Source of the DNA: Sphingomicrobium sp. | GTDB lineage: Bacteria; Pseudomonadota; Alphaproteobacteria; Sphingomonadales; Sphingomonadaceae | DNA: 64,000 nt | NCBI GenBank assembly: GCA_035537335.1 | Contig: DATLMM010000063.1 | Span: 1,576-65,575 of the forward strand | Direction of reading: 5' to 3' | Shown: positions 13,192 through 36,066 of the stretch, in pieces | How positions within the stretch are numbered: the first letter of the stretch is position 1 | How the letters are laid out: the number at the start of each line of letters is the position of its first letter | The notes under the pieces: model-generated | What the model saw: only the letters and a program-made list of their open reading frames with translations | The model's database searches: none | Told to the model about the DNA's origin: nothing | Made by a program: the position numbers and the translations under genes

Positions 13192-13269
13192 TGTTGCAGT
13201 AAAGTGACAGGCATCGTCCAATTGGCTCGGATGCCTCTACGTGATTGTGTTTGCGAGGACTCCACGAAA
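13192..13269 (+). promoter_or_regulatory. Upstream module copy 1: TGTTGC-N6-GTGACA ... TTGTGTTT-N10-CACGAAA
   Basis: Same elements at nearly the same spacing precede the second TBDR (19356-19436). Confidence 0.55.
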
Positions 13270-13310
13270 GAGAGGAACGGCCTGCCATTTTTTCAGAATC
13301 GGGTCTCCTC

Positions 13311-16300: not shown

Positions 16301-16505
16301 TGCCGAACGGAGGTACAGCCCGTCTGTGTTCTATCATGATGTTCGAGCATCGATCGACGTGAACAAGCAGTTCAACTTCTACCTTGGCGTCGACGATATC
16401 ACCAACCGGAAGCCGCCTCTTGGCGGAACCGGCATCGGCGCTGGCAGCGGTATCTATCGTAATATCGGCCGCTTCTTCTACGCTGGTGCTGTCGCCAAAT
16501 TCTGA
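13311..16505 (+). CDS. TonB-dependent receptor 1
   Basis: Signal peptide ending PSMA/Q, TonB box EIVVTGSRI, plug motifs LRGLG..RTLVLVNGRR and IERVDVVTGGNSAIYGSDAIAGVVNF, C-terminal Phe. Confidence 0.96.
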   Translation: MTKMTLLSATALRTLAAAGLSLAATPSMAQDVQPQPTPPTEGTTTNTTTTETAPPEALQSEVEIESGTEANTADEIVVTGSRIRRPNLESAVPVTSVSGEEFFETGQTSIGDTLNELPALRSTFSQANSTRFLGTAGLNILDLRGLGTQRTLVLVNGRRHIASNVLGNAVEVDVNTIPTDLIERVDVVTGGNSAIYGSDAIAGVVNFVLKQDFEGLQLRGQGGVSKYGDAGNYYVSALGGRNFGSDGQGNVAVNLEYARQNDFYASDRGKCFRTQCGFVRVDTDTGASSDDTPDRVYLEDIRSALYTNGGSLYGFGLVLDPADPLIGGNGVFTIPFTFTPGGDLIPVTGQRVGIAPFGSFIGGNGNNFREGTQFGLSPALDRYSANLIARYEVSPALVPFVEAKFVRTKSFGNASGPFFGPAIGETYASGPLEGFDREAIFSDNPYLSDQARGVLDEQGLTYFYLYRNYVELGNREEKARRDTFQIVGGLRGEFNDDWSYEVSANYGRLKENTRILGNVNTQRYLLALDSVVDPASGNIVCRSQIDPTAAISLRNNLDPAFAASQLAADVAACTPLNPFGEGNISQATRDYILQDTLAKGRINQFVLNAFVSGDTSQFFNLPGGPVGFALGVERRTYDVSYRQDASTRAGLTFYNAIPNFEPPKFAVTETFGEVRLPILRDQLFHELTITAAARYAKYKQFGGVWAYNVGGEFAPIRDIRFRGNFSRAVRAPSLADAFTPLGSNFTPAPLDPCALDNINQGSEFREANCRAAGVPADFNYTYTQSLAYLSGGNADLSPEKSDSITLGGVVQPRFVPGFSLSVDYYNITVDDVITSPTAQDVIDACYDLPSTDNPFCALFQRNAGPGAGPTGEIPGQILENSLELTPLNYAKLKVRGIDVEAAYRTNLGSIGRLDTRFIYTRALQNDEFLDPTDPDRADQLLLELGDPKHAFNFNSSLKTGPLTIGYQMRYLGKQLINLAEYEFFFSKNGEDPQDPDYAERRYSPSVFYHDVRASIDVNKQFNFYLGVDDITNRKPPLGGTGIGAGSGIYRNIGRFFYAGAVAKF

Positions 16506-16525
16506 ACTCGGAAGCGAGTGACTGG

Positions 16526-16562
16526 GAAGGGTCGGGACTTTGTCCCGACCCTTCTTGCTTTT
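16526..16562 (+). terminator. Intrinsic terminator-like hairpin after TBDR1
   Basis: GAAGGGTCGGGAC-TTT-GTCCCGACCCTTC (13-bp perfect stem) then TTGCTTTT. Confidence 0.75.
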
Positions 16563-16597
16563 GAGAAGCGGATTGGCGATCTTAAGCTATCGGTCCT

Positions 16598-17245
16598 ATG
16601 TGGACGCGAACGTTGCAGACACTTGTGCTTGAGTGTCCGAGAAACGTCGATTCCAGATCGGGTGCTGTCTTGTACGAACCTTCAAAAACGGTCTTGTCTT
16701 CGGTCGGCGATGCGCTGGAGAACGCGCGCAAGCTCCTGCCCACCCATCCGTTGGCAGCAGCGGAGCAAGCTCGAGAGATCATCCGGGTGGAGCCGGACAT
16801 CGCGGAAGCTTATGTTCTGCTTGCATGCTCCCTGCGGTCGGTCCGTGACGATGCTGAAGCTTTGAGGAACGAGCAGATCGCGATCGCTGTGGCGGAAAAA
16901 TCTCCGGTGATCGTTCGTGTGCGCAAGCAGATTGCTGATGGCGATCTGTCGAAGGCTGATGAACTGCTGCAACTGTACCTTGCGGACACTCCGAACGATC
17001 CCGTGGCCATTTACCTCCGTTCGCACGTGAGAAAGCGCTTGAGTGACTTCAGTGAAGCTCAACGACTGCTTGAGCGAGCGATCGCTTTGGCTCCGTCCTT
17101 TCAAGACGCGCGAGTTGCTCTCGACGCGCCTCCAACAACAGCCATCGGTGCTCTCCAACAAGGCTCCGCCGACGACATCCTCGATGACGGAAGCTGGTTC
17201 ACGGGCGAACCAGAGAAATCCGGCGAGAAGTCCCCGGCGACATGA
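16598..17245 (+). CDS. TPR-repeat protein (start uncertain)
   Basis: TPR-like helices (EPDIAEAYVLLA, AQRLLERAIALAPSF); ATGA overlap with the sulfotransferase; resembles that protein's N-terminal TPR region. Confidence 0.7.
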   Translation: MWTRTLQTLVLECPRNVDSRSGAVLYEPSKTVLSSVGDALENARKLLPTHPLAAAEQAREIIRVEPDIAEAYVLLACSLRSVRDDAEALRNEQIAIAVAEKSPVIVRVRKQIADGDLSKADELLQLYLADTPNDPVAIYLRSHVRKRLSDFSEAQRLLERAIALAPSFQDARVALDAPPTTAIGALQQGSADDILDDGSWFTGEPEKSGEKSPAT

Positions 17246-19035
17246 GGGATCGTTCCGTTGTTCTAGGCTCGAAAGAACAAGCACTTGCCAACGCCCGAGG
17301 ATTACTGACGCGTGATCCCTCTTCTGCCGAGCGGCAGGCAAGGATCGTCATTGATGGAGATGCCGAGTGCCCGGAGGCACATAGACTGCTGGGCCAAGCC
17401 CTTCGACAACTCGGCCGCGCGGAAGAAGCACAACAAGCAGAGGAAGCCGCGATTCGGTTTGCACTCCTCCAGCCGACCTTGTTCGAGGCGGCGATGGCTC
17501 TGGTGCAAGTAGATTTGAATAAGGCAGAGCGGTTGCTTCGGCCCTACTTGAAGCAACATCCAGATGACGCTGCGGCGCTTCGCATGCTGGCCGAGATAGC
17601 AGGTCGAACCGGCCACTTCGACGCCGCCGAACGGTTGGTGGAACGCGCGCTGGCAACCGCGCCGGACCATGCGCCTGCCCGAGCTCTGCAACAATCGATA
17701 CGGCGCCTGCGCATGCGTGGAAACGACGTTGCCTCCGGGCAGCTCCGCGGAGGGTTCACTGGCGGCGAGGAAGAGACTGGAGAGGAAAACCAGAGCGAGG
17801 CGTTGAAGCTGTACGAAGAAATTGTACATCGCTTTCCGGACAGCCCTGAAAATTGGGTGACCTATGGCCATGTTCTGAGGTCGGTCGGCAAGCAGAATGA
17901 AGCCGTTAACGCTTACCGCCAAGCGCTGGAGCGGCGCGTCCATTCCGGCGAAGCTTGGTATGGCATCGCAGATCTGAAGGCAGCACGCTTTGCTGTTGAC
18001 GATCTGACTCAGATGCAGCGCGCCCTTGCTTCTCCCGATCTCTCATCGAATGACCGAGTGCAGCTGGAGTTCGCCCTAGGACGCGCTCTGGAGCAGTTCG
18101 GATCGCCGGCCGAAGCATTTGAACACTACGCCGTGGCCAACGAACTTCGAGCGATACAATCAACATACCAAGCAGATCCCATCTCCCGGCATGTAGAATC
18201 GTCGAGGCACCTCCTCGGTCCAGAGTTCTTCGAAGCGCGGGTCGGCGCTGGAGATCCGTCGTCAGACCCGATCTTTATCTTGGGCATGCCCCGAGCAGGC
18301 TCGACGCTGCTCGAGCAAATCCTCTCGAGCCATCCGCTGATTGAAGCCACTGGCGAGCTTGCCGACCTGCCGAACCTTGCAAACACCTTGGCGGAGCAGA
18401 AAGTCGCAGCATTTGAGGATAGCCCGTATCTGCCTAATCTGATGGCGCTACCCCCTGCTGACCTGCTTCGACTTGGTCGCAGCTACATCTGGAGCACGGG
18501 CCTGAGACGGCGAACCACGCGGCCATTCTTTCTGGACAAGATGCCCAACAACTGGCTACATCTTGGACTTCTTATTAGCGTTCTGCCGAACGCCAAAATC
18601 ATCGACTCGCGGCGGCACCCGATAGCTTGCAGCTTCTCCAACTTTCGGCAGTACTTCGCCAAAGGGCAAGAGTTCAGCTATGACTTGAGACACATGGGGC
18701 GCTTCTACCGCGACTACGTCATTTTGATGGAACATTTCGACGAGGTTCTGCCAGATCGTATCTATCGGGTCGTACATGAGGATCTCGTCAACAATCCCGA
18801 AGACGAGATCCGGCGACTGCTAGACCATTTGGGCGTGGACTTCGACGAGCGGTGCCTTCGCTTTCATGAGAACAAGCGTACGGTGAAGACGGCCAGTTCA
18901 GAACAGGTCCGCCGTCCGCTCAATCGCGAAGGGTTCGATCAATGGCGCCCCTTTGCCGCCTGGCTTCAACCCCTTCGAGACGCCTTGGGTTCACTTGGCG
19001 ACGATTATTCCTCGGAGCAGGCTAAACCTTCGTAG
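17242..19035 (+). CDS. TPR-containing PAPS-dependent sulfotransferase
   Basis: N-terminal TPRs; PIFILGMPRAGSTLLEQIL (5'-phosphosulfate loop), DKMPNN, RHPIACSFS (3'-phosphate binding), TASSEQVR. Confidence 0.9.
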   Translation: MRDRSVVLGSKEQALANARGLLTRDPSSAERQARIVIDGDAECPEAHRLLGQALRQLGRAEEAQQAEEAAIRFALLQPTLFEAAMALVQVDLNKAERLLRPYLKQHPDDAAALRMLAEIAGRTGHFDAAERLVERALATAPDHAPARALQQSIRRLRMRGNDVASGQLRGGFTGGEEETGEENQSEALKLYEEIVHRFPDSPENWVTYGHVLRSVGKQNEAVNAYRQALERRVHSGEAWYGIADLKAARFAVDDLTQMQRALASPDLSSNDRVQLEFALGRALEQFGSPAEAFEHYAVANELRAIQSTYQADPISRHVESSRHLLGPEFFEARVGAGDPSSDPIFILGMPRAGSTLLEQILSSHPLIEATGELADLPNLANTLAEQKVAAFEDSPYLPNLMALPPADLLRLGRSYIWSTGLRRRTTRPFFLDKMPNNWLHLGLLISVLPNAKIIDSRRHPIACSFSNFRQYFAKGQEFSYDLRHMGRFYRDYVILMEHFDEVLPDRIYRVVHEDLVNNPEDEIRRLLDHLGVDFDERCLRFHENKRTVKTASSEQVRRPLNREGFDQWRPFAAWLQPLRDALGSLGDDYSSEQAKPS

Positions 19036-19355
19036 TGTAGTTAGGCTCGACGAGCGGTAGAGCTTTCGCCGAGGCTGCGTGCTTCTTCTGCGCGTCGGCA
19101 TGATTTCGCATGCCAGAACATTCGTTACTCTGAATCAAGAGCAACTTGACTGGGAAGACCCTTCGTCTTCGTGTCTTTGAAGAGACCGTTCTGTGGAACC
19201 AGGTGCACGCCAAGCATAACGACGGCGAAGCGGACGCAACCCTTCGGAATTCACCTCGGAAGTTCGGGGGTCCAAGTCCTTGCTCAGCAATCAGACACAC
19301 AAGCGATGATGCTAACAAGTATCCTCCAGCGAAGGTCAGCGCGTTACGCGACGTA

Positions 19356-19436
19356 TGTTGCCGATATGTGACACCGATCTGGAACTCGTGGTCCGGATCA
19401 ACACTCAGCTTTGTGTTTTCTCTCAGTTGCACGAAA
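19356..19436 (+). promoter_or_regulatory. Upstream module copy 2: TGTTGC-N6-GTGACA ... TTGTGTTT-N11-CACGAAA
   Basis: Matches the module upstream of TBDR1; palindrome ends 99 nt before ATG versus 101 nt for copy 1. Confidence 0.55.
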
Positions 19437-19472
19437 AGGCGCGAATCCTGCCTACCAATCAAGGAATCGTTG

Positions 19473-22400
19473 ATGAAAAAGATCTCGTTGCTGGGAACAA
19501 CGTCCCTGCGCACCTTTGCAACCGTCGGTCTGGTGTTCGGTATTGCCGGCGTTGCCAACGCTCAGGAGACCCCAGCAGAGACGCCAACTCCCGACAGTCA
19601 GCAGACTGCCGGCGAAGACGCTCCCGAGACTCTTGGATCTGAGGTCGAGGCACAATCGGGCGAGAATGCAAATACCTCCGACGAAATCGTCGTCACTGGA
19701 TCGCGCATTCGACGGCCCAACCTCGAGTCGACCGTTCCGGTCACGTCGATCGGCGGTGAAACCCTCTTTCAGCAGGGTGATGCCAACATCGGCGACACGC
19801 TCAACGAATTGCCGCAGCTTCGCAGCACGTTCGCCCAGCAGAACCCGGGTCTGGGGATCGGCATTGCCGGCCTTAATCTCCTCGACCTGCGTGGCCTTGG
19901 TACGCAGCGCACGCTAGTGCTGGTGAATGGCCGCCGACATGTTGCAGCCGACATCCTGAACAACGCTGTATCGCCTGACGTCAACTCGATTCCGAATGAT
20001 CTGATTGAGCGCATCGACATCGTGACGGGTGGCAATTCCGCCATTTATGGTTCCGATGCTATTGCTGGAGTCGTCAACTTCGTCCTCCGCCGAGACTTCG
20101 AAGGGCTGCAGATCCGCGGGCAAGCAGGTGTTTCGCCGCGCGGATTCGGCGGAAATCAGTACGTTTCCGCCATGTACGGCAAGAACCTCGCAGATGACCG
20201 TGCAAACATCACCGTGCATGGCGAATTCGCCAATCAGGAGCGTGTGTTCGGTTCCAGCCTGCCATGGCTTCGATCGGTCAACGGCCAGATTAACACGGAT
20301 GTCGATCCGGCCGGTCTGCCAAACGGTAGCGACGGCGTGGCAGACTTCACGTTCAACCGCGATGTTCGCAGTGCAACGAACAATCGCTTCGGCCTGATTC
20401 CGATCACTCAGTCCGCAGCAACGCCAGCTTGCGGAACGGGCATTGCAGCAAGCAACGGCCCTCCGTCCACCGTTGGAGGAAGTCCGTACAACTGCAACTT
20501 CTTGTTCGATCCGGCGGGCAATCTTGCAGCACAGACTGGGACGCGAGTTGGCGCAGGTCCGTTCGGCAGCTTCCTCGGCGGCAATGGGCAGACGGGTCGT
20601 GAGGGTCGGCTCTTCTCGGTGCAGCCTGAAGTACAGCGCTACAACTTGAACCTGCTTGCACATTTTACGATCAACGACGCAATCGAGCCGTTCGTTGAAG
20701 CCAAGTGGAACCGGGTCAACGCCCTCGGGAACAATGCCGGCCCGTCGTTTATCCAAGGCACTTTCGGGCAATTCGATGCTCGCGAGCGTGTTCGCCTCGA
20801 TAATCCATTCTTGGACCTTTCCGAACGAACCACCATCGCCAACGCAATCCTTGCGTCCGGTTGCAATACCGATCTGTCAACGGCTTGCGGCACCCGCGCA
20901 TCGGTGTTCGGAACCGGCTTGGGTCGGAGCGGTGCGCTGAATGCAGTCGACCGGGCGGCGATCGCGAACGGAACATATCGGTTTGTCGTTGCTCGCAATC
21001 TCCTCGACGCAGGTATTCGCGATGAAGAAAACCAGCGTGATACTTACCGCATCGTTGGAGGATTGCGCGGCGACTTCAATGATGACTGGAACTACGAAGT
21101 CTCTCTGAACTATGGAAAGTTCAAAGAGAAGAAGACGACTTTTGGCTACCTCGACAGGCAGCGCTTTATGCTTGCGCTCGATGCTGGGGTAAATCCGCTT
21201 ACCGGGCAGATCCAGTGCCGATCGCAATTCGATCCAGCTGCTGCGGCCGCGTTCGATCGGGGCCAGTATCAGGTCAATGCTCCGACAGCTACGAACCCGA
21301 ACCCCAGCCGTGGCAACGCCGGCCAAGTCGGTCGGTTGGCCGCGGATATTGCTGCCTGTCAGCCGTACAATCCATTCGGTGGTAGCGACAACAGCGCTGC
21401 AGTGGACTACTTCAGCTACAATTCGCGCACTACTGGGTCGCTTCGGCAATTCGTTGCGACCGGCTTTGTTGGCGGTGACAGCAGCCAGTTGTTCGAGTTG
21501 CCCGGCGGACCTGTGCGCTTTGCACTTGGCGCGGAGTATCGGCGGGAACAGGGTGATTATACCGATGACCCGTTCACGAACGAGGGTAACCCACTTGCCA
21601 CTGACCCGAGCAGCGTCAACCCAGTGACTCAGACGAATACCAATGCGGTGGTCATTGGCCGGTTCAATCCAGACACCTTCAAGGTTCAGGAGGCCTTTGG
21701 GGAACTCCAGATTCCGATCGTAAAAGAAATCCCTCTCTTTCACGAGCTTACCCTTAGTGGCGCTGCTCGAGTCTCGAAGTACAACAAGGTTGCGGGGGAT
21801 GTAGGAACGGTTTGGACCTACAACGTCGGGGCGGATTGGGCACCTGTCAGGGACATCAGGTTCCGCGGAAACTACAGCAAGGCTGTCCGTGCGCCGAACC
21901 TGTCGGAACTTTACTTTCCGCCCGTGCCGAACTTCGCTCCGGGCTTCGTTGACCCATGCTCGTCCAACGTAATCGCCAACAATCCCAATCGCTCGAGTAA
22001 CTGCCAGGCCGATCTGGGCCCGCTGCTGGCTTCCATTCGCAACTCGGCGATCTCGCTGCCGGTCATCAGCGGCAGCAATCCTCTCCTCGGAGAAGAGACC
22101 TCCCGATCCATCACGCTCGGAGCGGTCGTGCAACCTCGCTGGGTGCCGGGGCTGTCCCTCAGCGTCGATTACTATAAGATCAAGGTGGAAGACGTGATCG
22201 TGTCGCTTACGGCTCAAGCGATTGCGAACAACTGCTATGATCAACCAAGCCTCAGCAACGTGTTCTGTTCCTTGTTTGACCGGAATCGTGGCACGGGACC
22301 CGACGGCTTCGGCCAGAACCCGGGCGAAATCTTGGGCAACACGCTCATTCAGGCAGGCGTCAACTTCGCAGCGCGCCGGCGTGAGGGTGTCGATGTGAAC

Positions 22401-22952
22401 GTTGCCTATCGCGGAGACTTGGGGAACCTCGCAAAGATTAACACCAACTTCATCTATACTCACAATATCAAGAACAGTAACTACGAGAACCCGGCCCTTC
22501 CCAAGTTCGAGAACCGCATCCTTAGCGAGTTGGGTGATCCTCGTGATGAGTTCCGTTGGGACACGGATCTCACGCGTGGCGCATTTACCTTTGGTTACCG
22601 GATGCGGTACATCGGCCCGATGCTCACCAGTCTGTACGAGAACTTCTACGAACTCGACACGGCTTGCAGCACGACGACTTGCCCGCCCAACAACTTGGAC
22701 GCAGCGGAGCCCAGGAAGTATGACGCGGTCTTCTACCACGATATCCGGTTCGAAGTAGATTTGAAGGATACGGCTGGTTTCGGTAAGCAGTTCTCCTTCT
22801 ACGCTGGTGTCGACAACCTTCTCGACACGCACCCGCCGCTGGGCCTGTCCGGCACGGGTACCACCGGCATCACCGATCGCGGTACCGGTAACGCGGCGAT
22901 CTACGACGCGTTCGGTCGGAAGGCATACGCGGGCTTCCGCGCACGCTTCTAA
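19473..22952 (+). CDS. TonB-dependent receptor 2 (paralog of receptor 1)
   Basis: Start MKKISLL behind AAGGA; signal peptide ANA/Q; DEIVVTGSRIRRPNLES; plug motifs; C-terminal RARF. Confidence 0.96.
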   Translation: MKKISLLGTTSLRTFATVGLVFGIAGVANAQETPAETPTPDSQQTAGEDAPETLGSEVEAQSGENANTSDEIVVTGSRIRRPNLESTVPVTSIGGETLFQQGDANIGDTLNELPQLRSTFAQQNPGLGIGIAGLNLLDLRGLGTQRTLVLVNGRRHVAADILNNAVSPDVNSIPNDLIERIDIVTGGNSAIYGSDAIAGVVNFVLRRDFEGLQIRGQAGVSPRGFGGNQYVSAMYGKNLADDRANITVHGEFANQERVFGSSLPWLRSVNGQINTDVDPAGLPNGSDGVADFTFNRDVRSATNNRFGLIPITQSAATPACGTGIAASNGPPSTVGGSPYNCNFLFDPAGNLAAQTGTRVGAGPFGSFLGGNGQTGREGRLFSVQPEVQRYNLNLLAHFTINDAIEPFVEAKWNRVNALGNNAGPSFIQGTFGQFDARERVRLDNPFLDLSERTTIANAILASGCNTDLSTACGTRASVFGTGLGRSGALNAVDRAAIANGTYRFVVARNLLDAGIRDEENQRDTYRIVGGLRGDFNDDWNYEVSLNYGKFKEKKTTFGYLDRQRFMLALDAGVNPLTGQIQCRSQFDPAAAAAFDRGQYQVNAPTATNPNPSRGNAGQVGRLAADIAACQPYNPFGGSDNSAAVDYFSYNSRTTGSLRQFVATGFVGGDSSQLFELPGGPVRFALGAEYRREQGDYTDDPFTNEGNPLATDPSSVNPVTQTNTNAVVIGRFNPDTFKVQEAFGELQIPIVKEIPLFHELTLSGAARVSKYNKVAGDVGTVWTYNVGADWAPVRDIRFRGNYSKAVRAPNLSELYFPPVPNFAPGFVDPCSSNVIANNPNRSSNCQADLGPLLASIRNSAISLPVISGSNPLLGEETSRSITLGAVVQPRWVPGLSLSVDYYKIKVEDVIVSLTAQAIANNCYDQPSLSNVFCSLFDRNRGTGPDGFGQNPGEILGNTLIQAGVNFAARRREGVDVNVAYRGDLGNLAKINTNFIYTHNIKNSNYENPALPKFENRILSELGDPRDEFRWDTDLTRGAFTFGYRMRYIGPMLTSLYENFYELDTACSTTTCPPNNLDAAEPRKYDAVFYHDIRFEVDLKDTAGFGKQFSFYAGVDNLLDTHPPLGLSGTGTTGITDRGTGNAAIYDAFGRKAYAGFRARF

Positions 22953-22977
22953 CTTCCGATAGCCAGGATAGAATTGC

Positions 22978-23009
22978 AGGGCCGGAGCAATAGCTCCGGC
23001 CCTCTTTTT
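22978..23009 (+). terminator. Intrinsic terminator after TBDR2
   Basis: AGGGCCGGAGC-AATA-GCTCCGGCCCT then CTTTTT. Confidence 0.8.
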
Positions 23010-23047
23010 CGTTGCGCTGACCCGGGCTCAGAGGCACAGGTCGATCT

Positions 23048-24004
23048 GTGTCAGTCATCAACCAAGCCCACCGAATGGTCGACATCGGGCGAGTCAGTGA
23101 CGCAGTTTCCCTGCTTCAGGCAGCCGGTTCTGCTAAGAACGCCGATGCACTTATGGAGCTTGCCGTCTGGCAGCTCGGCGGCCGGTACGTCCCACGTGAT
23201 CTTGCACTTTCACGCCAGAACTTCGGCAAGGCAGCCGCTCTCGGGCATCGGCAGGCTCAATCGATCTATCTAAATCTACTTGGTGTCGGCATCGGGGGAG
23301 TCCGGGACTGGGCCGCCGCGCTCGACCGGTTACAGAAACTCGGCCAAACCGACAACGATGCGCAGCGGCAACTTCGATTGCTGCAAGCGATGGCTCTCGA
23401 CGAGAACGGCGATCCGTTGCAACCGCCGTCAGGCGATCGCTTGAGCAAAAGCCCCGAAGTAGTGCGCTTTTCCGATTTGCTGACCGCTGAGGAATGCCGC
23501 TACCTCATCGACCGTGCGACCCCCGCCTTAGCGCCGGCGGTCGTGATCGATCCCGCGAGTGGCCGAACCGTTCCTCACCCGATCCGGACTTCAGAGAACG
23601 CGGGCTTTCCGTGGGTTGACGAAGATCCGGTGATCCATGCGCTGAACCGCCGAATAGCCGCTGCGAGCCTTACGCAGGCAAGCTGGGGCGAACCGCTGCA
23701 GGTCCTGCGCTATCGTCCGGGGCAGCAGTACAAACCGCATCACGACGCCATAGCTCAAGCCAAGAACCAGCGGATCATCACAGTCCTTGTTTACTTGAAC
23801 GAGGGCTACGTCGGCGGAGAAACCGAATTCCTCCACACCGGCCTACGGGTCGCAGGTCGCACTGGCGATGCCTTGCTGTTCCGCAACGCCGATAACAACG
23901 GAACGCCCGATCCGACGGCGGTCCACGCGGGACGGCCGGTCACCTCGGGCGAGAAGTTCCTCGCCACGAGGTGGATACATCAGCGGCACTTCGGCCCCTC
24001 CTAA
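23048..24004 (+). CDS. Sel1-like repeat + 2OG-Fe(II) oxygenase (prolyl 4-hydroxylase family)
   Basis: Sel1-like N-terminus (VPRDLALSRQNFGKAAALGH); EPLQVLRY..YKPHHD (HxD), LVYLN..GGETEF, HAGRPV..GEK..TRW. Confidence 0.88.
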   Translation: MSVINQAHRMVDIGRVSDAVSLLQAAGSAKNADALMELAVWQLGGRYVPRDLALSRQNFGKAAALGHRQAQSIYLNLLGVGIGGVRDWAAALDRLQKLGQTDNDAQRQLRLLQAMALDENGDPLQPPSGDRLSKSPEVVRFSDLLTAEECRYLIDRATPALAPAVVIDPASGRTVPHPIRTSENAGFPWVDEDPVIHALNRRIAAASLTQASWGEPLQVLRYRPGQQYKPHHDAIAQAKNQRIITVLVYLNEGYVGGETEFLHTGLRVAGRTGDALLFRNADNNGTPDPTAVHAGRPVTSGEKFLATRWIHQRHFGPS

Positions 24005-26204: not shown

Positions 26205-26684
26205 ATGACCATCCAGATCGGCGATCGCCTGCCCGAAGTCCCGCTGACCATTGCCACCGGCGAAGGCCCTCGGCCGACCACCACCACCAAATATTTTGGT
26301 GGCAAGAAGGTGGCACTGTTTGCCGTCCCGGGCGCCTACACCCCGACTTGCTCGGCCAAGCACCTGCCCTCTTATGTCGAAAAGGCCGACGAGCTTAAGA
26401 GCAAGGGCGTGGACGAAATCGCCTGCACCAGCGTCAACGATGCCTTCGTCATGAGCGCCTGGAACCGTGAGGCAGGCAGTGAGCACATTACCATGCTGGC
26501 GGACGGCAATGGGCAGCTGGCCGACGCATTGGGTCTGACCATGGACGGCAGCAAGTTCGGCATGGGCACACGCTCGCAGCGCTATTCCATGATCGTGAAC
26601 GATGGCGTCGTCGAGCAGCTCAACGTGGAAGCGCCGGGCGAGTACCAGGCCTCCAGCGCCGAGACGATGCTGGGTCAACTTTAA
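26205..26684 (+). CDS. Peroxiredoxin (Prx5/type II)
   Basis: VPGAYTPTCSAKHLP, SVNDAFVM, RSQRY; AGGAG RBS. Confidence 0.94.
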   Translation: MTIQIGDRLPEVPLTIATGEGPRPTTTTKYFGGKKVALFAVPGAYTPTCSAKHLPSYVEKADELKSKGVDEIACTSVNDAFVMSAWNREAGSEHITMLADGNGQLADALGLTMDGSKFGMGTRSQRYSMIVNDGVVEQLNVEAPGEYQASSAETMLGQL

Positions 26685-26738
26685 GCAAAGCGTAGTAGTC
26701 GCCCGTCGCTGTTCGGCCTCTCCCTGGCGAGAAGACTT

Positions 26739-26763
26739 GCAACGACGGGCGGCGCTGCACGTT
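26739..26763 (+). promoter_or_regulatory. EcfG (general stress sigma)-like promoter
   Basis: GCAAC-N16-CGTT ending 33 nt before the Ser/Gly-rich gene; consensus GGAAC-N16/17-CGTT. Confidence 0.45.
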
Positions 26764-26796
26764 GAGCGGTCAGCAAACTTTTGCGAAATGAGGAGC

Positions 26797-27462
26797 ATGA
26801 CCGTGGCCAATAACGATCGAAACGACAGCAATACGACCAGTCAGCGTCGCACGACCGCCGAGAAAACCAACAAGAGCAACGAACGCGGCCGCTTTGCCGG
26901 CATCGGGCAGACCGTGAAGGATCGCCCGTATGCAGCGGCCGCCGTTGCGACGGCTGCCGCCGCGGCAGGCGCATTCTTCTTCTCTCGCCGCAGTGGCAGC
27001 TCAGGGTCCGCGGTCAAGTGGGGCCAGCAGTCCGACGGTGAGTCGCAGCGCGGCAGCTCAGCCGGAAGTGCTGGCAGCAGCTTCGCCCAAGGCTCGACCA
27101 GCCAGGACAGCCTGCTGGAAACCAGCAGCAGCAGCCCAAGCAGCAGCGCCGGCATTGGCGCGGGCACCGGCGGAAGCAGCCCGAGCGACCTGTCGAGCAG
27201 CACTTCCGGTAGCGGCAGCACGAGCGGCAAGAGCGGCAGCAGCGGCGTCTCGGGGTCGGACAGCAGCGACAATCTGAACACCGGCACCAACACCTCGTCG
27301 GGAGCGGGCAGCAGCACGAGTTCCACCTCCACAAGCGGTGGGAAGGGCTCGGCCAAATCGAGCAACACCGGCAGCCAGACTTCGTCGGCCAAGGGCAACA
27401 CTGGGCTCGACGAGACCTCCGAAGACCAGACTAAGACAGGTTCGATTGCCTACGGAGCCTAA
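26797..27462 (+). CDS. Ser/Gly/Thr-rich low-complexity protein with one hydrophobic anchor
   Basis: GAGGAG RBS; DRPYAAAAVATAAAAAGAFFFSRR segment followed by a long S/G/T-rich tail; terminator follows. Confidence 0.75.
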   Translation: MTVANNDRNDSNTTSQRRTTAEKTNKSNERGRFAGIGQTVKDRPYAAAAVATAAAAAGAFFFSRRSGSSGSAVKWGQQSDGESQRGSSAGSAGSSFAQGSTSQDSLLETSSSSPSSSAGIGAGTGGSSPSDLSSSTSGSGSTSGKSGSSGVSGSDSSDNLNTGTNTSSGAGSSTSSTSTSGGKGSAKSSNTGSQTSSAKGNTGLDETSEDQTKTGSIAYGA

Positions 27463-28734: not shown

Positions 28735-30624
28735 CTACCACCCGCACTGCTTGCCGGCGTTCTGCTCTTCCAGCCACTTCTGCAGAGGCGCGAAATATTC
28801 CAGCATCGGGCGTCCGGACATCTCACGCGAGCCGGTGAAGGCTTGCAGCGCATCGGGCCAGGGCTTGGACGCGCCCATCTCCAGCATCGCGTTCAGCCGC
28901 TGACCGACCTCCTTGTTGCCGTAGAAGGAGCAGCGGTGCAGCGGACCCTTCCACCCGGCCATGTCGCACGCCGCCTTGTAGAACTGGAACTGCAGGATGC
29001 GGGCAAGGAAGTAGCGGGCGTAGGGCGTGCTAGCCGGGATGTGGTACTTGGCGCCCGGATCGAAGTCCGCCTCGGTCCGCTGACCCGGCGGGGTAATGCC
29101 CTGATACTGGAGGCGCAGCTGGTTCCAGCCGGCGTTGTACTGCTGGGGCGTGATCGAACCGTCGAACACGCCCCAGCGCCACTTGTCGACCATGAGGCCG
29201 AACGGCAGGAACGCCACCTTGTCCATTGCCTGGCGGAGCAGCAGGCCGGTATCCTTGGACGCGTCCGGGACCTTGTTGCGATCAAGCAGGCCGATCTGCA
29301 CGAGATACTCCGGCGTCACGGACAGAGCGATGAAGTCGCCAATCGCCTCGTGGAAGCCGTCGTTGGCGCCGTTCAGGTAGAGATACGGCTGCTGATTGTA
29401 GGCGCGCTGGTAGTAGTTGTGGCCAAGCTCGTGATGGATGGTCACGAAATCGTCCCCGTTGACCTTGGTGCACATCTTGATGCGCAGGTCGTTCTTGTTG
29501 TCGAGGTCCCAGGCCGACGCGTGGCAAACGACTTCGCGCCCTTCCGGACGGACGATCTGAGAACGCTGGTAGAAAGTCGCCGGCAGCGGCTGTAGCCCGA
29601 GGGAGGTGTAGAAGCCTTCGCCGATACGGACCATGTCCTCCGGCGTCTTCTTCTTGGCCTTCAGCAACTCCGTCACGTCGTAGCCGACATCGCCGGCACC
29701 GGCCGGCGCGACCAGGTCGTAAATATTTCCCCATTCCTGCGCCCACATGTTGCCTAGCAGGTCGGCGCGGATCGGGCCGCTGTTGGGCTGCACCGCATTG
29801 CCATACTTCTGGTTGAGCTTGGCGCGGGTAAAGCAGTGAAGCTGATTGTATAGCGGCTTAACCTCGGCCCACAGCCGGTCGTACATGCCGGAGAACTCCT
29901 GCGGGGTCATGTCGTACTGCGACCGCCACATGGCGCCGCTGTCCTGGTAGCCGAGGTCCTTGGCACCAGCATTGGCGAGCTCGACCAGCCGGGTATAGTC
30001 GGCGCGCATCGGTCGCCCGACATTATTGTGCCAGCTGGTCCAGACTTCCTGAGTCTTCCGGGGATCGCGCAGCGTGCCCATCGCTTCCTCGGCATCGTCA
30101 CCGGTGATGGTCTTGCCGTTAAGCTGAGCGCGGCCCTTGCCGTACGTCGATTGCAGGCGCGTCGCAATGGTGTTGAGCTCGGCCGCGGCACCGGGCGTGG
30201 AAGGCGCCGCGAGCACCAGGGCACCGCGGAGGATGTTAAGCTTGCGCGCCGTATCCGGATCGAGGCCCTGCACCTGAGCGAAGCGGGCCGCCTCCTTGGC
30301 GTAACGTACACCCTTTTCGGTTCCGATCGTTCCGAAGTAAGCCGCAAGGGCGTCCGTATCGTCGGTAATGTAGGTGGAATTAACCCACTGCGCGCGGCTG
30401 GAGATGGTCGAAAGATCGAACAAGTCCTTCTCGACCTCCGCAATGAACTGCCGCGCCCCCTCCGACGTGGAGGGGTACACTGACGCGGGCGGGGCATCGG
30501 TCGTGCCGGGCGTGTCGTTCTGCGATACGGCCAGCGGAGCAGCCGCCGTGCTGTCGCCACTGGCCGTGGTCATGCAGCCGGCAAGGGCGAGGGCGAGCAG
30601 GGAAACGGAAGCGGCCAATTTCAT
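28735..30624 (-). CDS. M2 family metallopeptidase (ACE-like peptidyl-dipeptidase), lipoprotein
   Basis: Lipobox LAGC; HHELGH zinc motif plus EAIGD third ligand; LLGNMWAQ, FDPGAKYHI, LQFQF. Confidence 0.93.
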   Translation of the reverse strand: MKLAASVSLLALALAGCMTTASGDSTAAAPLAVSQNDTPGTTDAPPASVYPSTSEGARQFIAEVEKDLFDLSTISSRAQWVNSTYITDDTDALAAYFGTIGTEKGVRYAKEAARFAQVQGLDPDTARKLNILRGALVLAAPSTPGAAAELNTIATRLQSTYGKGRAQLNGKTITGDDAEEAMGTLRDPRKTQEVWTSWHNNVGRPMRADYTRLVELANAGAKDLGYQDSGAMWRSQYDMTPQEFSGMYDRLWAEVKPLYNQLHCFTRAKLNQKYGNAVQPNSGPIRADLLGNMWAQEWGNIYDLVAPAGAGDVGYDVTELLKAKKKTPEDMVRIGEGFYTSLGLQPLPATFYQRSQIVRPEGREVVCHASAWDLDNKNDLRIKMCTKVNGDDFVTIHHELGHNYYQRAYNQQPYLYLNGANDGFHEAIGDFIALSVTPEYLVQIGLLDRNKVPDASKDTGLLLRQAMDKVAFLPFGLMVDKWRWGVFDGSITPQQYNAGWNQLRLQYQGITPPGQRTEADFDPGAKYHIPASTPYARYFLARILQFQFYKAACDMAGWKGPLHRCSFYGNKEVGQRLNAMLEMGASKPWPDALQAFTGSREMSGRPMLEYFAPLQKWLEEQNAGKQCGW

Positions 30625-30688
30625 GGGCTTGAACCTCAAAGGCTGATTGTTCGCGTGGGCAGCGGACTGCGACACTGTCACTGAACCG

Positions 30689-32139: not shown

Positions 32140-33168
32140 CTAAGCCGCCTTCTGTAGGTGCCGTCGCCCGAGCAGCTCCGCGATCTGCACCGCGTTCAGC
32201 GCGGCGCCCTTGCGCAGGTTGTCGCTGACAACCCACAGCGACAGGCCGCTATCCACGGTAGGATCCTCGCGCACCCGCGAAACAAAGGTCGCATAATCGC
32301 CGACGCACTCGACCGGGGTGACGTAGCCGCCGTCCTCGCGTTTATCGACCAGCATGACGCCAGGCGCCTCACGCAGGATGTCCTGTGCTTCCTTGGCAGA
32401 GATGTCTCGCTCGAACTCGACGTTGATGCTTTCGGAATGACCGACGAAAACCGGCACGCGGACGCATGTGGCAGTGACCTTTATGCGCGTATCCAGAATT
32501 TTCTTGGTCTCTACCACCATCTTCCACTCCTCCTTGGTCGATCCGTCGTCGAGGAAATCGTCGATGTGCGGGATGACGTTGAAGGCGATCTGCTTGGTGA
32601 ACTTGGCTGGCGCGGTCGGGTCGCCAACGAAGATATTCCGGCTCTGCTCGAACAGCTCGTCCATGCCCTGCTTGCCCGCGCCGGATACCGACTGGTAGGT
32701 CGAGACCACCACCCGCTTGATCCCGGCGACATCATGGAGCGGCTTAAGCGCGACTACCATCTGGGCGGTGGAGCAATTCGGGTTGGCGATGATATTCTTC
32801 GCCCGGTACCCGGCGATGGCTTCCGAATTGACCTCCGGGACGATCAACGGAACATCAGGATCCATCCGGTAGAGCGATGAATTGTCGATCACCGTGCATC
32901 CCGCCGCAGCGGCACGGGGCGCGTGGAGCCTGCTGCCTTCCGAGCCGATGGCGAACAAGGCCATGTCGAAGCCTTCGAAGTCGAAGTGTTCGAGGTTCTT
33001 GACCTTGAGCTCTTCGCCCGAGTCCCCGAAATCTATGATGTCGCCGGTCGAACGGGCGCTGGCGACGGCTGCGACCTCGTCGAGCGGAAACTGCCGCTCA
33101 GCCAGGATCTGCAGCATCTCGCGTCCGACATTCCCCGTCGCACCAACAACGGCGATCCGATAACCCAT
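32140..33168 (-). CDS. asd: Aspartate-semialdehyde dehydrogenase
   Basis: VGATGNVG, NPNCST catalytic Cys, STYQSVSGAG, DNLRKGAALN. Confidence 0.97.
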   Translation of the reverse strand: MGYRIAVVGATGNVGREMLQILAERQFPLDEVAAVASARSTGDIIDFGDSGEELKVKNLEHFDFEGFDMALFAIGSEGSRLHAPRAAAAGCTVIDNSSLYRMDPDVPLIVPEVNSEAIAGYRAKNIIANPNCSTAQMVVALKPLHDVAGIKRVVVSTYQSVSGAGKQGMDELFEQSRNIFVGDPTAPAKFTKQIAFNVIPHIDDFLDDGSTKEEWKMVVETKKILDTRIKVTATCVRVPVFVGHSESINVEFERDISAKEAQDILREAPGVMLVDKREDGGYVTPVECVGDYATFVSRVREDPTVDSGLSLWVVSDNLRKGAALNAVQIAELLGRRHLQKAA

Positions 33169-33225: not shown

Positions 33226-34161
33226 CTAGGACGCCATATGCTCGCGGGCAGAAGTCATGAGGGCGTGGCCAAGCTCCGTCAGATGGCCTCCCTGCTCGAT
33301 CACCTCGTTACCGGCGTGGAAATTGCGGCGATGCAAGACGAGATCAGCCCGAGCTGCCTCGGCTTGCTCGTCATCCAGAACTCCCACGCTCAGCAATCGC
33401 TGCAGCGTCTGGTGCATTCGAGCGATCACGTAGGTTGCGTGGATCACTCCGTCCATTGGCCGCGGGTCGGCGCGCAACGGCGAGTGGAAGAGTTCGTCGT
33501 CGGGACTGTCAGTGAGCGGACCGGAAGCGCAGAAGCCGAACAGCAGATTATGTCCGCTTTCGTGCGCAAGGGCCTGGGCGGTGTCGAGCACCGTCTTCTG
33601 CCCTCGTGCATTGAGCAGGATGGCGCCCCACAGCATGAAGCAGGAGGCGCCGTCGAAGGTCAGGGCCTTGGGATCTTCGGGTCCGGTCGCCACTACGATC
33701 TCTCGCAGCAGCGCCCGTATCTCGGCTGCAAGCTGCGGAAAGCCGCGGTCGAGCAGGTCGAATGCGTCATCGACCCTGCGCCGGCACTCGCCAAGGATCA
33801 CGGCATCGGGCGGCTCGGCCATCTCCGGCGTTGGTAAAAAAAGACGCCGGCAACGTTCGGCATGAGCCTGTGGGCGGTCGTCGATGGCCCCGACGTGAGC
33901 CCCGGTCGTCGGCACGGCCTCCTCATAGCCGGTCGACACCAGCTCGCGGGCGAGTTTTCTCGCCCGATCGAGCTGATCCTGTTCCAGCGCGAACACCAGA
34001 TCATAGTAGGTGCCGAAAAGCTGCGGCGACTGCGGCTGCGCCCGAACAGACGCGACCGTCTGCGCGATCTGCTCACGACCTAAAGCGAGAGGTTCACCGA
34101 CCTGACCGCATAGGTAATCGAGACTGTCCGCAAGCCGGTCACGCATGCGCTGATCGAGCAT
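33226..34161 (-). CDS. HExxH-motif protein (aKG-HExxH-type peptide-modifying oxygenase candidate); may start at CTG 34224
   Basis: FDGASCFMLWGAILLN, LAHESGHNLL, SPLRADPRPMDGVIHATYV; frame stays open 21 codons upstream to a CTG 2 nt after the peptide's stop. Confidence 0.8.
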   Translation of the reverse strand: MLDQRMRDRLADSLDYLCGQVGEPLALGREQIAQTVASVRAQPQSPQLFGTYYDLVFALEQDQLDRARKLARELVSTGYEEAVPTTGAHVGAIDDRPQAHAERCRRLFLPTPEMAEPPDAVILGECRRRVDDAFDLLDRGFPQLAAEIRALLREIVVATGPEDPKALTFDGASCFMLWGAILLNARGQKTVLDTAQALAHESGHNLLFGFCASGPLTDSPDDELFHSPLRADPRPMDGVIHATYVIARMHQTLQRLLSVGVLDDEQAEAARADLVLHRRNFHAGNEVIEQGGHLTELGHALMTSAREHMAS

Positions 34162-34226
34162 GCGGCCGCGGTCGGCGCTCGGCTCAAACGTAGGAGCCGA
34201 TAGGATGTCGACGGCGGTGGCCAGCT

Positions 34227-34409
34227 TCAGGCTTTGAGCCCGAGCTTCGCCCCGATCTTCACGCCAAGCTTGTTGCCGACCTTGGCGCCAACCTTCGCTT
34301 CAAGCTTGCCCGTGGTCTCGTTGCGGATGGATGGGCGATGCTCAACAATCTGGTCAAACCCAAGCAGGCGGTTCCAGTCTAGCTTTGCAGAGACGTTTTC
34401 CCTGTTCAT
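34227..34409 (-). CDS. 60-aa putative RiPP precursor with (K-[LVI]-G-x)n core
   Basis: GGGAGA RBS 5 nt before ATG; MNRENVSAKLDWNRLLGFDQIVEHRPSIRNETTG-KLEA-KVGA-KVGN-KLGV-KIGA-KLGL-KA. Confidence 0.75.
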   Translation of the reverse strand: MNRENVSAKLDWNRLLGFDQIVEHRPSIRNETTGKLEAKVGAKVGNKLGVKIGAKLGLKA

Positions 34410-34504
34410 ACAATTCTCCCTGTCAGACGGCATGCTGCCCTTGCGACTCGTTATCTTAACGTTAATCTCTGCTCGGGACAATCGGCTTGTACGGGGGAGC
34501 GGCC

Positions 34505-35536
34505 TTGATCCTAATCGTCACCACGCGAGAGCACCGCTACACGCATGAGGGGCTGGCTGCCGAAACTGGTGTAGCCATGCGGGTCGTGACCTATGACGAA
34601 CTACTCCGGCGCAGGAAGCTTTTTGGCGCTACCCACATCTTCACCGATGTCGACCGCCTCCCTTCCTGGCGCGTTCACGAGGCGGCCTTGCTGTACCGCG
34701 ACCTCAAGAAGGCAGGCATTAGGGTCTTGAACGACCCCGCACGAATGCTTGGGCGCTTCGGATTACTTCGCGCACTCAACCGGTCCGGCATGAACAGCTT
34801 CGATGCGTATCGGGCGGAGGAGCTCGAGCGGCCGCGGAGGTGGCCGGTTTTCCTGCGGACGGAAGGAGACCACCGCTTCCCGGTGTCCGGCCTGCTCCAC
34901 AGCCAGGCAGAGCTGGACGAAGCACTAAGGAGCAGCGTTGATGTTGGAGTTCCGCACAGCGCCTTGCTGATCATCGAATATGCAGCCGAGCCGGTGCGTC
35001 CCGGACTTTTCCGCAAGCTGTCTATGTTCCGAGTTGGCGAGCGACTGCTTGGCTACACCTGCGTCCATGACGACCAGTGGCTGGTCAAATATGGCAAGCC
35101 GGGGATCGCCCCGCCCGAACTGTATGAAGAAGAATATTCAATCGTCGCGAACAATCCGTTTGCGGACGCCATCCTCCCGGCCTTTGAAATCGCCGGCATC
35201 GAGTATGGCAGGGTGGACTTCGCCGTGGTGGCCGGAAGGCCGGTCATCTACGAGATCAACAGCAATCCCAACGTGCAGCTTAAGCCGCCCGCCAGCCCCG
35301 CTACTCGGCGCAACGAGAGCACAGAATTGTTCCGGCTTAATTATCTGGACGCGATGAGTGCGATTGACAGCGGTCCTTCCGCGAGCCTGGGTCTGCACTT
35401 TGCCCTGCTCGCACAACGGGCGAGCGCCGCCCCAGGGAAGGCGAACCGTGCGGTCCGCAGTTGGCATCAGAAATTGCGGGCGGTGTTCAAGAACAACGGC
35501 AAGCGTAGCAGCGTCGGCCCGCAGCCAACCAGCTAG
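34505..35536 (+). CDS. ATP-grasp fold protein
   Basis: GGGGAG RBS before TTG; RVLNDP, WPVFLR, LLIIEY, YGRVDF..VIYEINSNP (D...ExN metal-binding end of ATP-grasp). Confidence 0.7.
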   Translation: MILIVTTREHRYTHEGLAAETGVAMRVVTYDELLRRRKLFGATHIFTDVDRLPSWRVHEAALLYRDLKKAGIRVLNDPARMLGRFGLLRALNRSGMNSFDAYRAEELERPRRWPVFLRTEGDHRFPVSGLLHSQAELDEALRSSVDVGVPHSALLIIEYAAEPVRPGLFRKLSMFRVGERLLGYTCVHDDQWLVKYGKPGIAPPELYEEEYSIVANNPFADAILPAFEIAGIEYGRVDFAVVAGRPVIYEINSNPNVQLKPPASPATRRNESTELFRLNYLDAMSAIDSGPSASLGLHFALLAQRASAAPGKANRAVRSWHQKLRAVFKNNGKRSSVGPQPTS

Positions 35537-35628: not shown

Positions 35629-36066
35629 TCAGGCCTCGGCGCTCTCGGTTTCCGGAGTGACAGACTCGGTCGCCGGAGCCGCCGCTTGGTTCTTGGCATT
35701 TAGGCGCGGGTCACGGCGTTCGGCGATGCGAGCCGATTTGCCGGTGCGGCCGCGCAGATAGTAGAGCTTGGCGCGGCGAACGGCACCGCGGCGCACGACA
35801 TCGATCGAGTCGAGCGACGGCGAGTAGAGCGGGAACACACGCTCGACGCCTTCGCCGAAGCTGATCTTGCGCACTGTAAAGTTGCTGTTGATGCCCTTGT
35901 TGGCGCGAGCGATGCACACGCCCTCGAAGTTCTGGACGCGGGTGCGTTCGCCTTCGATGACCTTGACGCCGACCCGCAGGGTGTCGCCAGGACGGAATTC
36001 GGGAATGGCACGGGCCTGGGTGAGCTCCGCGATCTGCTCGCGCTCGATGGTCTCGATGAGGTTCAT
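35629..36066 (-). CDS. rplS: 50S ribosomal protein L19
   Basis: [32 protein letters not shown]. Confidence 0.98.

Follow-up and report, generated by a model that had tools for sequence, protein, structure and literature searches.

A lysine-repeat peptide encoded beside an aKG-HExxH enzyme and one of several ligases: a conserved, probable RiPP cassette in Sphingomicrobium and its relatives

Closest described systems and the locus under study

Among the peptides that are made on ribosomes and modified after translation (RiPPs) there are systems in which an oxygenase of the aKG-HExxH family (ChlH/ChlBH, SjiH, BpmH/BipH, PflC/PosC, PesO; TIGR04267, IPR026337) is encoded next to a small precursor. 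Recognition of these oxygenases is recent, and the reactions of only a few are known; they β-hydroxylate His, Asp, Phe, Gln and Pro on RiPP precursors (PMC13060819; PMC12636437). The present analysis concerns a cassette found in a 64,000-nucleotide (nt) stretch of a Sphingomicrobium sp. genome (GCA_035537335.1, contig DATLMM010000063.1, C63), called the window below. The genome is 75% complete, and the nearest named homologs come from Sphingomicrobium and other sphingomonads. Exactly three genes lie between asd and rplS, as the original prediction from the sequence had it: one for a 60-amino-acid (aa) peptide with lysine repeats, one for an HExxH protein and one for an ATP-grasp-fold protein. 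The HExxH protein shares family, fold and the adjoining small precursor with the described oxygenases. The cassette differs from their systems in lacking a radical SAM or MNIO enzyme, and in having its own leader, a Lys-Gly core and an ATP-dependent ligase as partner. In particular, the radical SAM cyclophane synthase of the Triceptide ChlBH type is present neither fused nor adjacent, the HExxH protein being a 332-aa stand-alone protein in a three-gene interval. No protease or exporter gene was found between asd and rplS; the absence of these and of a radical SAM partner had also been foreseen. The pfl cluster likewise has no protease gene (PMC12636437).

The closest published system is corallotide (graspetide group 15; PMC13097080), in which an ATP-grasp enzyme and a 2-oxoglutarate (2OG)-Fe(II) oxygenase also work on repeated Lys motifs. 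Its 22-kDa precursor CorA carries KxxxD donor-acceptor motifs, CorB belongs to TIGR04187 and CorC to PF13640, whereas the cassette has no acceptor, an ATP-grasp protein without a graspetide model match and an oxygenase of the HExxH fold. The suspected poor fit to graspetides was borne out, for there is no match to a synthetase hidden Markov model (HMM), and the cores have no conserved Asp/Glu acceptors to pair with Lys/Ser/Thr donors. The fold and the catalytic-type residues (R..D, ExN) of the ATP-grasp protein resemble those of RimK, LysX, ArgX and D-Ala-D-Ala ligase (Ddl), but identity to these is 11-18%, no family HMM matches, and the putative substrate has no conserved acidic C-terminus. 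By alignment, an Arg takes the place of the ATP-binding Lys of those enzymes.

Two further systems bear comparison. Selidamides (PMC13647313) are RiPPs acylated on Lys/Orn side-chain amines; they are made with a GNAT enzyme and acyl-CoA, carry NHLP/Nif11 leaders and are modified at a single site, while the cassette and its relatives have an ATP-grasp protein or a fused adenylation-carrier-thioesterase protein (A-PCP-TE) and Lys numbers of up to nine or ten. No GNAT family or NHLP/Nif11 leader was matched among the three cassette proteins in Pfam/NCBIfam. The adenylation, carrier and hydrolase-like trio NosI/NosJ/NosK of nosiheptide (PMC5585349) resembles the fused A-PCP-TE of relatives, but consists of separate proteins, serves a thiopeptide scaffold and is not found in this window. 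In the literature covered, mostly open papers, no description of the leader or the gene set was found; a brief mention elsewhere in print is possible. The cassette is not described in the available parts of PMC12707348 and PMC12452194, and in a partial table from the graspetide supplements of PMC13097080 the leader strings and HExxH terms occur 0 times. As anticipated, no described class has this layout in that literature. The cassette represents a real, conserved, uncharacterised family, very probably of RiPPs, made of known enzyme types in a combination not found in print, and there is a fair chance that its chemistry is new and class-defining.

The cassette genes and their co-occurrence

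The original prediction staked itself on the three genes being found together elsewhere, and they are, mostly in divergent layout and with a conserved leader and Lys-Gly repeats. The search with the ATP-grasp protein gave at least 421 metagenome loci, of which the best 80 were analysed, and that with the HExxH protein gave 105 genome loci, of which again the best 80 were analysed; even samples of 251 genus genomes (own included) and 400 class genomes were searched as well. The genus denominators include the unpublished genomes G241, G020 and G255, on which no positive cassette claim draws. An HExxH gene was present in 50 of the 80 metagenome loci; in 14 loci both HExxH and precursor were missing, and each of these had less than 1200 nt upstream. 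Where at least 1200 nt were available, an HExxH match was found in 30/30 loci (one weak, L159) and a precursor was called in 27. From the other side, 48 of the 80 HExxH-anchored genome loci had this ATP-grasp protein, and 43 of the 48 were divergent as in the window. A full-length ATP-grasp gene occurred in 10/251 genus genomes, all ten with HExxH and precursor adjoining, and in four of the 400 class genomes, two of them with HExxH (precursor called in one). Pairwise identities of the HExxH and ATP-grasp proteins are correlated (r 0.87, 44 loci), an effect that shared ancestry would also give. In a separate draw of 60 genomes of relatives, no HExxH gene was found in those searched. Peptide, HExxH and ATP-grasp genes thus form a conserved, patchily distributed cassette. 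It is accessory, because rplS directly abuts asd in 2/22 relatives (in a third the two are less than 1 kb apart) and neither asd nor rplS is present in any of the 169 other cassette loci. Frameshifts split cassette genes in L010, L027 and L032, where assembly errors or decay are possible.

The precursor gene (34227..34409, minus strand; 60 aa plus stop) has the good ribosome-binding site that had been claimed for it, AGGGAG (34416..34421, minus) at 6 nt before the ATG. The N-terminal half carries the leader motif LDWNRLLGFDQ (aa 10-20; 34350..34382, minus), whose family consensus is (L/I)D-x3/4-LLG(F/Y). The core (34230..34310, minus) consists of G-x-K-hydrophobic repeats, recognised from the sequence and from homolog cores, with seven Lys in an exact period of 4 (Lys 35, 39, 43, 47, 51, 55 and 59). 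E37 is the sole acidic residue inside the repeats, in agreement with the initial count, and E23 and E31 are in the spacer. Among six-frame open reading frames (ORFs) of the own 1.77-Mb genome the run (K-x-G-x)3K is unique to this peptide, and no trans-encoded precursor or second enzyme copy was found there. The peptide matched no Pfam/NCBIfam family, and by its features no usable match was obtained in the ESM Atlas.

To avoid circularity, relatives of the precursor were searched for with a leader-only pattern free of the Lys motif. Its 196 matches fell in the 808 kb of DNA close to the enzymes, against 0 in 719 kb of distal DNA of the same loci, and K-x-G followed within 45 aa in 177 of the 184 complete ORFs found in this way; the neighbourhood check proposed at the outset, for short ORFs with such a leader and KxG repeats, was positive. 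The 80 distinct leader DNA blocks vary freely in synonymous codons, a freedom that concerns codons only, as the pattern fixes residues. Strict calls gave precursors in 61/80 genome loci, and about 15 more with degenerate leaders were recognised by relaxed patterns or by eye; with strict and relaxed patterns and by eye none was seen in L034, L039, L040 and L069. The 123 distinct cores from loci with this ATP-grasp protein (grasp-type) have a mean of 3.6 K-x-G motifs, spacing 4 being dominant. Gly stands at +2 for 438 of 633 Lys in grasp-type tails, and a second Lys at +4 in 403 of these 438 K-x-G modules, isolated modules included. G-x-K-[VIL]-G occurs 209 times and its Arg-for-Lys version 3 times, while the Lys-adjacent positions and the C-terminal residues are variable. 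Asp and Glu are absent from 48/121 cores; on average there are 5.2 Lys against 1.3 Asp/Glu, and Lys outnumber acids in 107/121. A RiPP system is generally marked by a small gene that combines a conserved leader with a variable core and lies next to modifying enzymes, and this is what was found here. Up to eight tandem precursor genes, several ORFs with two or three leader-core units, are present at L055:5441-7742 and L070:6692-7721.

The HExxH gene (33226..34224, minus) encodes HESGH at residues 221-225 and SPLRADPRPMDGVIH at 248-262. Its product matches TIGR04267 with 107.9 bits (cut-off 40) and aligns with 8s5f (ChlH) and another solved HExxH protein, 22nu, over the HExxH and SPxR..RP..H segments, the latter of the form SP(W/L)R..RP..H as in ChlH. 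The structure model (pLDDT 92) matched 8s5f in Foldseek (E 4e-11, TM 0.63 over 331 columns), and only ChlH and SjiH were found at E <0.001, peptidases at E 0.2 or worse. Neither 120 close homologs nor 44 more diverse loci show any change at H221, E222, H225, R251, R255 and H262. By every membership test run (TIGR04267, motif, fold) the protein is an aKG-HExxH family member, as first supposed. Its frame is open to 34299, beyond the peptide stop, and the first ATG is at 34161. Because the conserved N-terminal motif FEPSA precedes this ATG, and several homologs have a Met just before the motif and others only CTG, the gene likely starts at CTG 34224 (codon 34222-34224), 2 nt past the precursor stop. 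Its position directly after the peptide gene was correctly described, but the figure of 2 nt applies to the likely start and not, as had been stated, to the limit of the open frame. Several close homologs also have no ATG, GTG or TTG at this position.

The ATP-grasp-fold gene (34505..35536, plus; 343 aa) most likely starts at TTG 34505, which has GGGGGAG 5 nt upstream and fits the homolog consensus MILIxTT. With this start the predicted 95-nt gap to the peptide ATG holds (34410..34504). Promoters are presumed to lie in it, although a scan of this region gave no sigma-70 consensus match and terminator-like sites at chance level. No Pfam/NCBIfam family, graspetide-synthetase and RimK models included, was matched at E 0.1; a sequence search of the PDB gave chance kinase matches only, and profiles gave weak Ddl matches. 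A structure model (pLDDT 92) built from ATG 34577, and thus minus 24 N-terminal residues, matched Ddl, ArgX, LysX and RimK in Foldseek (E 5e-9), and in VIA RimK (Z 15.4, rmsd 3.7, 231 aligned), ArgX (14.7), PsnB (12.1) and MdnC (10.5). By its modelled fold the protein belongs to the ATP-grasp superfamily, so that the identity first assigned to it finds its support in fold and not in HMMs. R212, D214, E226 and N228 (numbering from ATG 34577) are conserved in homologs. The enzyme looks catalytically intact, since its YGRVD and EINSNP motifs (conserved pattern R..D and ExNxNP) are conserved and align with the Ddl catalytic region. The family comprises 2,055 clusters at E 0.001 and 1,193 at E 1e-30, and its ESM Atlas matches are unnamed clusters and RimK-like ones.

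Ligase exchange, predicted chemistry and its alternatives

What is new here is the exchange of the ligase on a constant HExxH enzyme and Lys motif across the 80 genome loci. The partner is this ATP-grasp protein in 48 loci, an A-PCP-TE protein in 16, a CphA-like ligase in 4, a 330-aa ATP-grasp-like protein in 2 and an AMP-type ligase in 2; 4 loci are cut by a contig end and 4 have none. The A-PCP-TE partners are AMP-binding/PP-binding proteins, mostly with a weak thioesterase match, encoded 0-1.5 kb after the HExxH gene (10/16 assigned by Pfam scan and the remaining 6 by sequence clustering). The CphA-like ones are cyanophycin-synthetase-like ATP-grasp enzymes of about 600 aa, and the other AMP-type ligases are in L036 and L039. 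The 330-aa partner of L047 and L081 is ATP-grasp-like by motif and a weak Pfam match (E 0.008) only, a label unsupported by profile comparison and PDB search. A-PCP-TE, CphA-like and other grasp-like partners never share a locus with this ATP-grasp protein. On the HExxH tree (quick IQ-TREE, 83 rows, unrooted) the partner types cluster, the label needing 16 changes, against 31.9 when shuffled, with 2 changes for A-PCP-TE and 2 for CphA-like; L050, within an otherwise mostly grasp-type starred clade, combines a CphA-like ligase with a period-4 precursor. The precursors follow suit: K-x-G-x-K is present in 117/123 grasp-type cores and in 0/40 A-PCP-TE-type cores, and 33/40 A-PCP-TE-type precursors have a single K-x-G per leader. 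The HExxH enzyme and the leader with its Lys motif are thus the constant core, and this ATP-grasp protein is one of several interchangeable ligases, which refines the initial two-enzyme picture. What varies is, in nearly all cases, an ATP-dependent enzyme that activates a carboxylate.

In several relatives (L051, L059, L061, L071, L076, L078 and L080) a Peptidase_S74 (endosialidase chaperone) domain is fused C-terminally after a single-Lys core, as judged by Pfam for L071 (E 8e-6; L071:6190-6639, minus) and by motif for the other loci. In these A-PCP-TE loci the fusion could serve self-cleavage or trimerisation of the RiPP precursor.

The conserved cassette is very probably a real RiPP pathway with the lysine-repeat peptide as precursor. 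Recruitment of the HExxH enzyme would fall to the leader, since the leader is kept regardless of the ligase. Using Fe(II) and 2-oxoglutarate, the enzyme would then hydroxylate Lys of the core, the sole conserved reactive side chain and for that reason the predicted target, with the β-carbon as the default by family precedent. The ligase would turn a small acid, probably an amino acid or a short organic one, into an acyl-phosphate, from which an amide on the Lys ε-amine or an ester on the new hydroxyl would form, and the modification would repeat along the tetrapeptide units. An external acid would be the simplest chemistry common to all partners, since the cores supply amines and no conserved carboxylate; it is through this that the ligase swap points to Lys hydroxylation and acylation by an outside acid. 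An adenylation-carrier-hydrolase set handles an acyl group in nosiheptide (PMC5585349). Leader removal and export, if any, would rely on host machinery. It seems reasonably probable that the oxygenase acts on Lys, and the balance tips slightly towards a ligase that adds an external acyl group. To leader-guided Lys hydroxylation followed by ATP-grasp attachment of an outside carboxylic acid, taken together, we give about an even chance. Such a minimal system, one 60-aa peptide and two enzymes, would add Lys to the aKG-HExxH targets and give a large unnamed ATP-grasp family its first function. It would also show a RiPP scaffold with evolutionary ligase exchange (ATP-grasp, CphA-like, A-PCP-TE). 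If iterative leader-directed Lys acylation or Lys-Lys stapling is true, it would be useful for peptide engineering.

Several points weigh against hydroxylation and acylation of Lys in a fixed cassette. RimK and LysX/ArgX, the nearest folds, activate a protein carboxylate and not a free acid. Acylation is not obligatory, because L025, L033, L035 and L058 have HExxH with DNA on both sides and no detected ligase; nor are the ligases strictly exclusive, because a separate gene for an AMP-binding protein lies within 1.6-3.2 kb at the ATP-grasp loci L057, L073 and L075. Two of the four class genomes with the ATP-grasp gene have no HExxH or precursor within 10-14 kb, and the gene stands there beside MBOAT or Wzx flippase genes. 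The loci are not independent, with near-copies and overlap between the genome, metagenome and genus sets, and the leader pattern gives 6 unrelated matches in the own 1.77-Mb genome, a background of about 3 per Mb. Conservation of Gly in the cores equals that of Lys, and the aKG-HExxH targets reported in the available part of PMC13060819 do not include Lys.

The prominence of Gly, at +2 of most grasp-type Lys, is the starting point of another explanation, in which the HExxH enzyme oxidises the repeat backbone at the Gly α-carbon and, with no need of a protease, cleaves it into short amidated units; Lys or the new termini would then be acylated by the ligase. PflC and PosC are HExxH enzymes with oxidative backbone cleavage (PMC12636437), MicC is a proposed Gly α-carbon hydroxylase (PMC12912966), and no protease recurs beside the cassette. 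However, this activity is a minority one among the HExxH enzymes reported in those sources, the invariant Gly is equally explained by active-site access, and the Peptidase_S74 domain fused after some cores suggests a separate route of C-terminal release; we regard backbone cleavage as rather unlikely. The K-x-G-x-K contrast between grasp-type and A-PCP-TE-type cores, the second Lys kept even in isolated modules and the cores without acceptors would suit Lys-to-Lys lactams, for which the oxygenase would turn the Lys ε-carbon into an aldehyde or aminoadipate and the ATP-grasp enzyme would close a graspetide-like ring to the Lys four residues away. If true, these rings would be a new RiPP class, a crosslink from two lysines whose acceptor is not gene-encoded, set in a wider HExxH family that swaps in other ligases on the same Lys motif. 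But the split follows the HExxH tree and may reflect ancestry, the distant ATP-grasp loci L067, L073 and L075 have single-Lys modules, and no such HExxH chemistry was found in the literature as far as available, which makes lactam formation improbable. Similarly doubtful is a graspetide- or RimK-like role, in which the ATP-grasp enzyme would activate a peptide carboxylate (spacer Asp/Glu or the C-terminus) and join it to Lys/Ser/Thr or free amino acids, with tailoring by the oxygenase afterwards. CphA-like substitutes activate a polymer carboxylate. RimK and ArgX/LysX are the top folds with PsnB and MdnC matching too, and corallotide pairs an ATP-grasp enzyme with a 2OG oxygenase on Lys repeats (PMC13097080). 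The many cores poor in or devoid of Asp/Glu, the variable C-termini and the lack of a graspetide-synthetase or RimK HMM match argue the other way, and an external acid is in better accord with replacement by A-PCP-TE.

Two explanations would remove one enzyme from the modification pathway. The ATP-grasp protein might act elsewhere, for example on surface polysaccharide, and only the HExxH-precursor pair would be a RiPP system. Family members without HExxH stand beside MBOAT or Wzx genes, one is fused to GT2 (P0325), and some cassettes lie among glycosyltransferase-like genes; the tight linkage, the common divergent layout at unrelated insertion sites and the presence of other ligases at the same position make this very improbable. 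The HExxH protein might be a zinc peptidase that removes the leader, given its motif, its zincin-like fold and the lack of another protease; without the leader, PflC hydrolyses peptides (PMC12636437). With TIGR04267 far above its cut-off, an SPLRxDxRP..H segment that aligns with ChlH and peptidases at Foldseek E 0.2 or worse, this deserves hardly any credence. A poly-hydroxamate siderophore was also considered and set aside, as no TonB receptor stood out by eye among the recurring neighbours. Lys N-hydroxylation is flavin chemistry, which counts against it as well.

Surroundings of the cassette and the wider ATP-grasp family

The flanking genes asd (left; 32140..33168, minus) and rplS (right; 35629..36066, minus), named from reading the sequence, are host genes outside the system. 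An MFS transporter beside the cassette in several relatives was rejected as its exporter, being a common host gene present in 157/251 genus genomes (two of the 157 unpublished); no close copy was found in the own 75%-complete assembly. An HtpX-like M48 peptidase beside 4 loci was treated as a host gene, four being too few. Within the window, 2.5 kb from the cassette, lies a Peptidase_M2 (ACE-like) gene (28735-30681, minus; Pfam); it was not noticed as a recurrent neighbour at other cassette loci, and the gene was treated as unrelated. A block at 13245-24004, with no cassette link seen, holds by Pfam a TonB-dependent receptor and a Sel1/2OG-Fe(II) oxygenase; inspection by eye adds a TPR-sulfotransferase-like gene and a second TonB receptor between the two. 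A 286-aa Ser/Gly/Thr-rich low-complexity ORF without a Pfam family is at 26602-27462 (plus).

Extended clusters were observed at L073:2703-8942 and L075:2628-8969, where an alpha/beta-hydrolase, an AMP-binding enzyme and a P450 stand by the ATP-grasp gene, a precursor with ASKRG repeats and HExxH. Members of the ATP-grasp family without HExxH are at L223:5939-9679 and L224:5111-8581, beside MBOAT (two tandem copies) or a Wzx flippase. Among P0325, P0248 and P0297 there are fusions to GT2 or TPR domains, P0325 being the GT2 fusion. A second role of the family in surface-polymer modification is possible. A distantly related ATP-grasp family with weak resemblance to RimK (E 1e-16 to 1e-8; L230, L231, L232 and L234) is present in about 37 genus genomes, and in L232 its gene is located by a methyltransferase-like and a KdoO-like gene.

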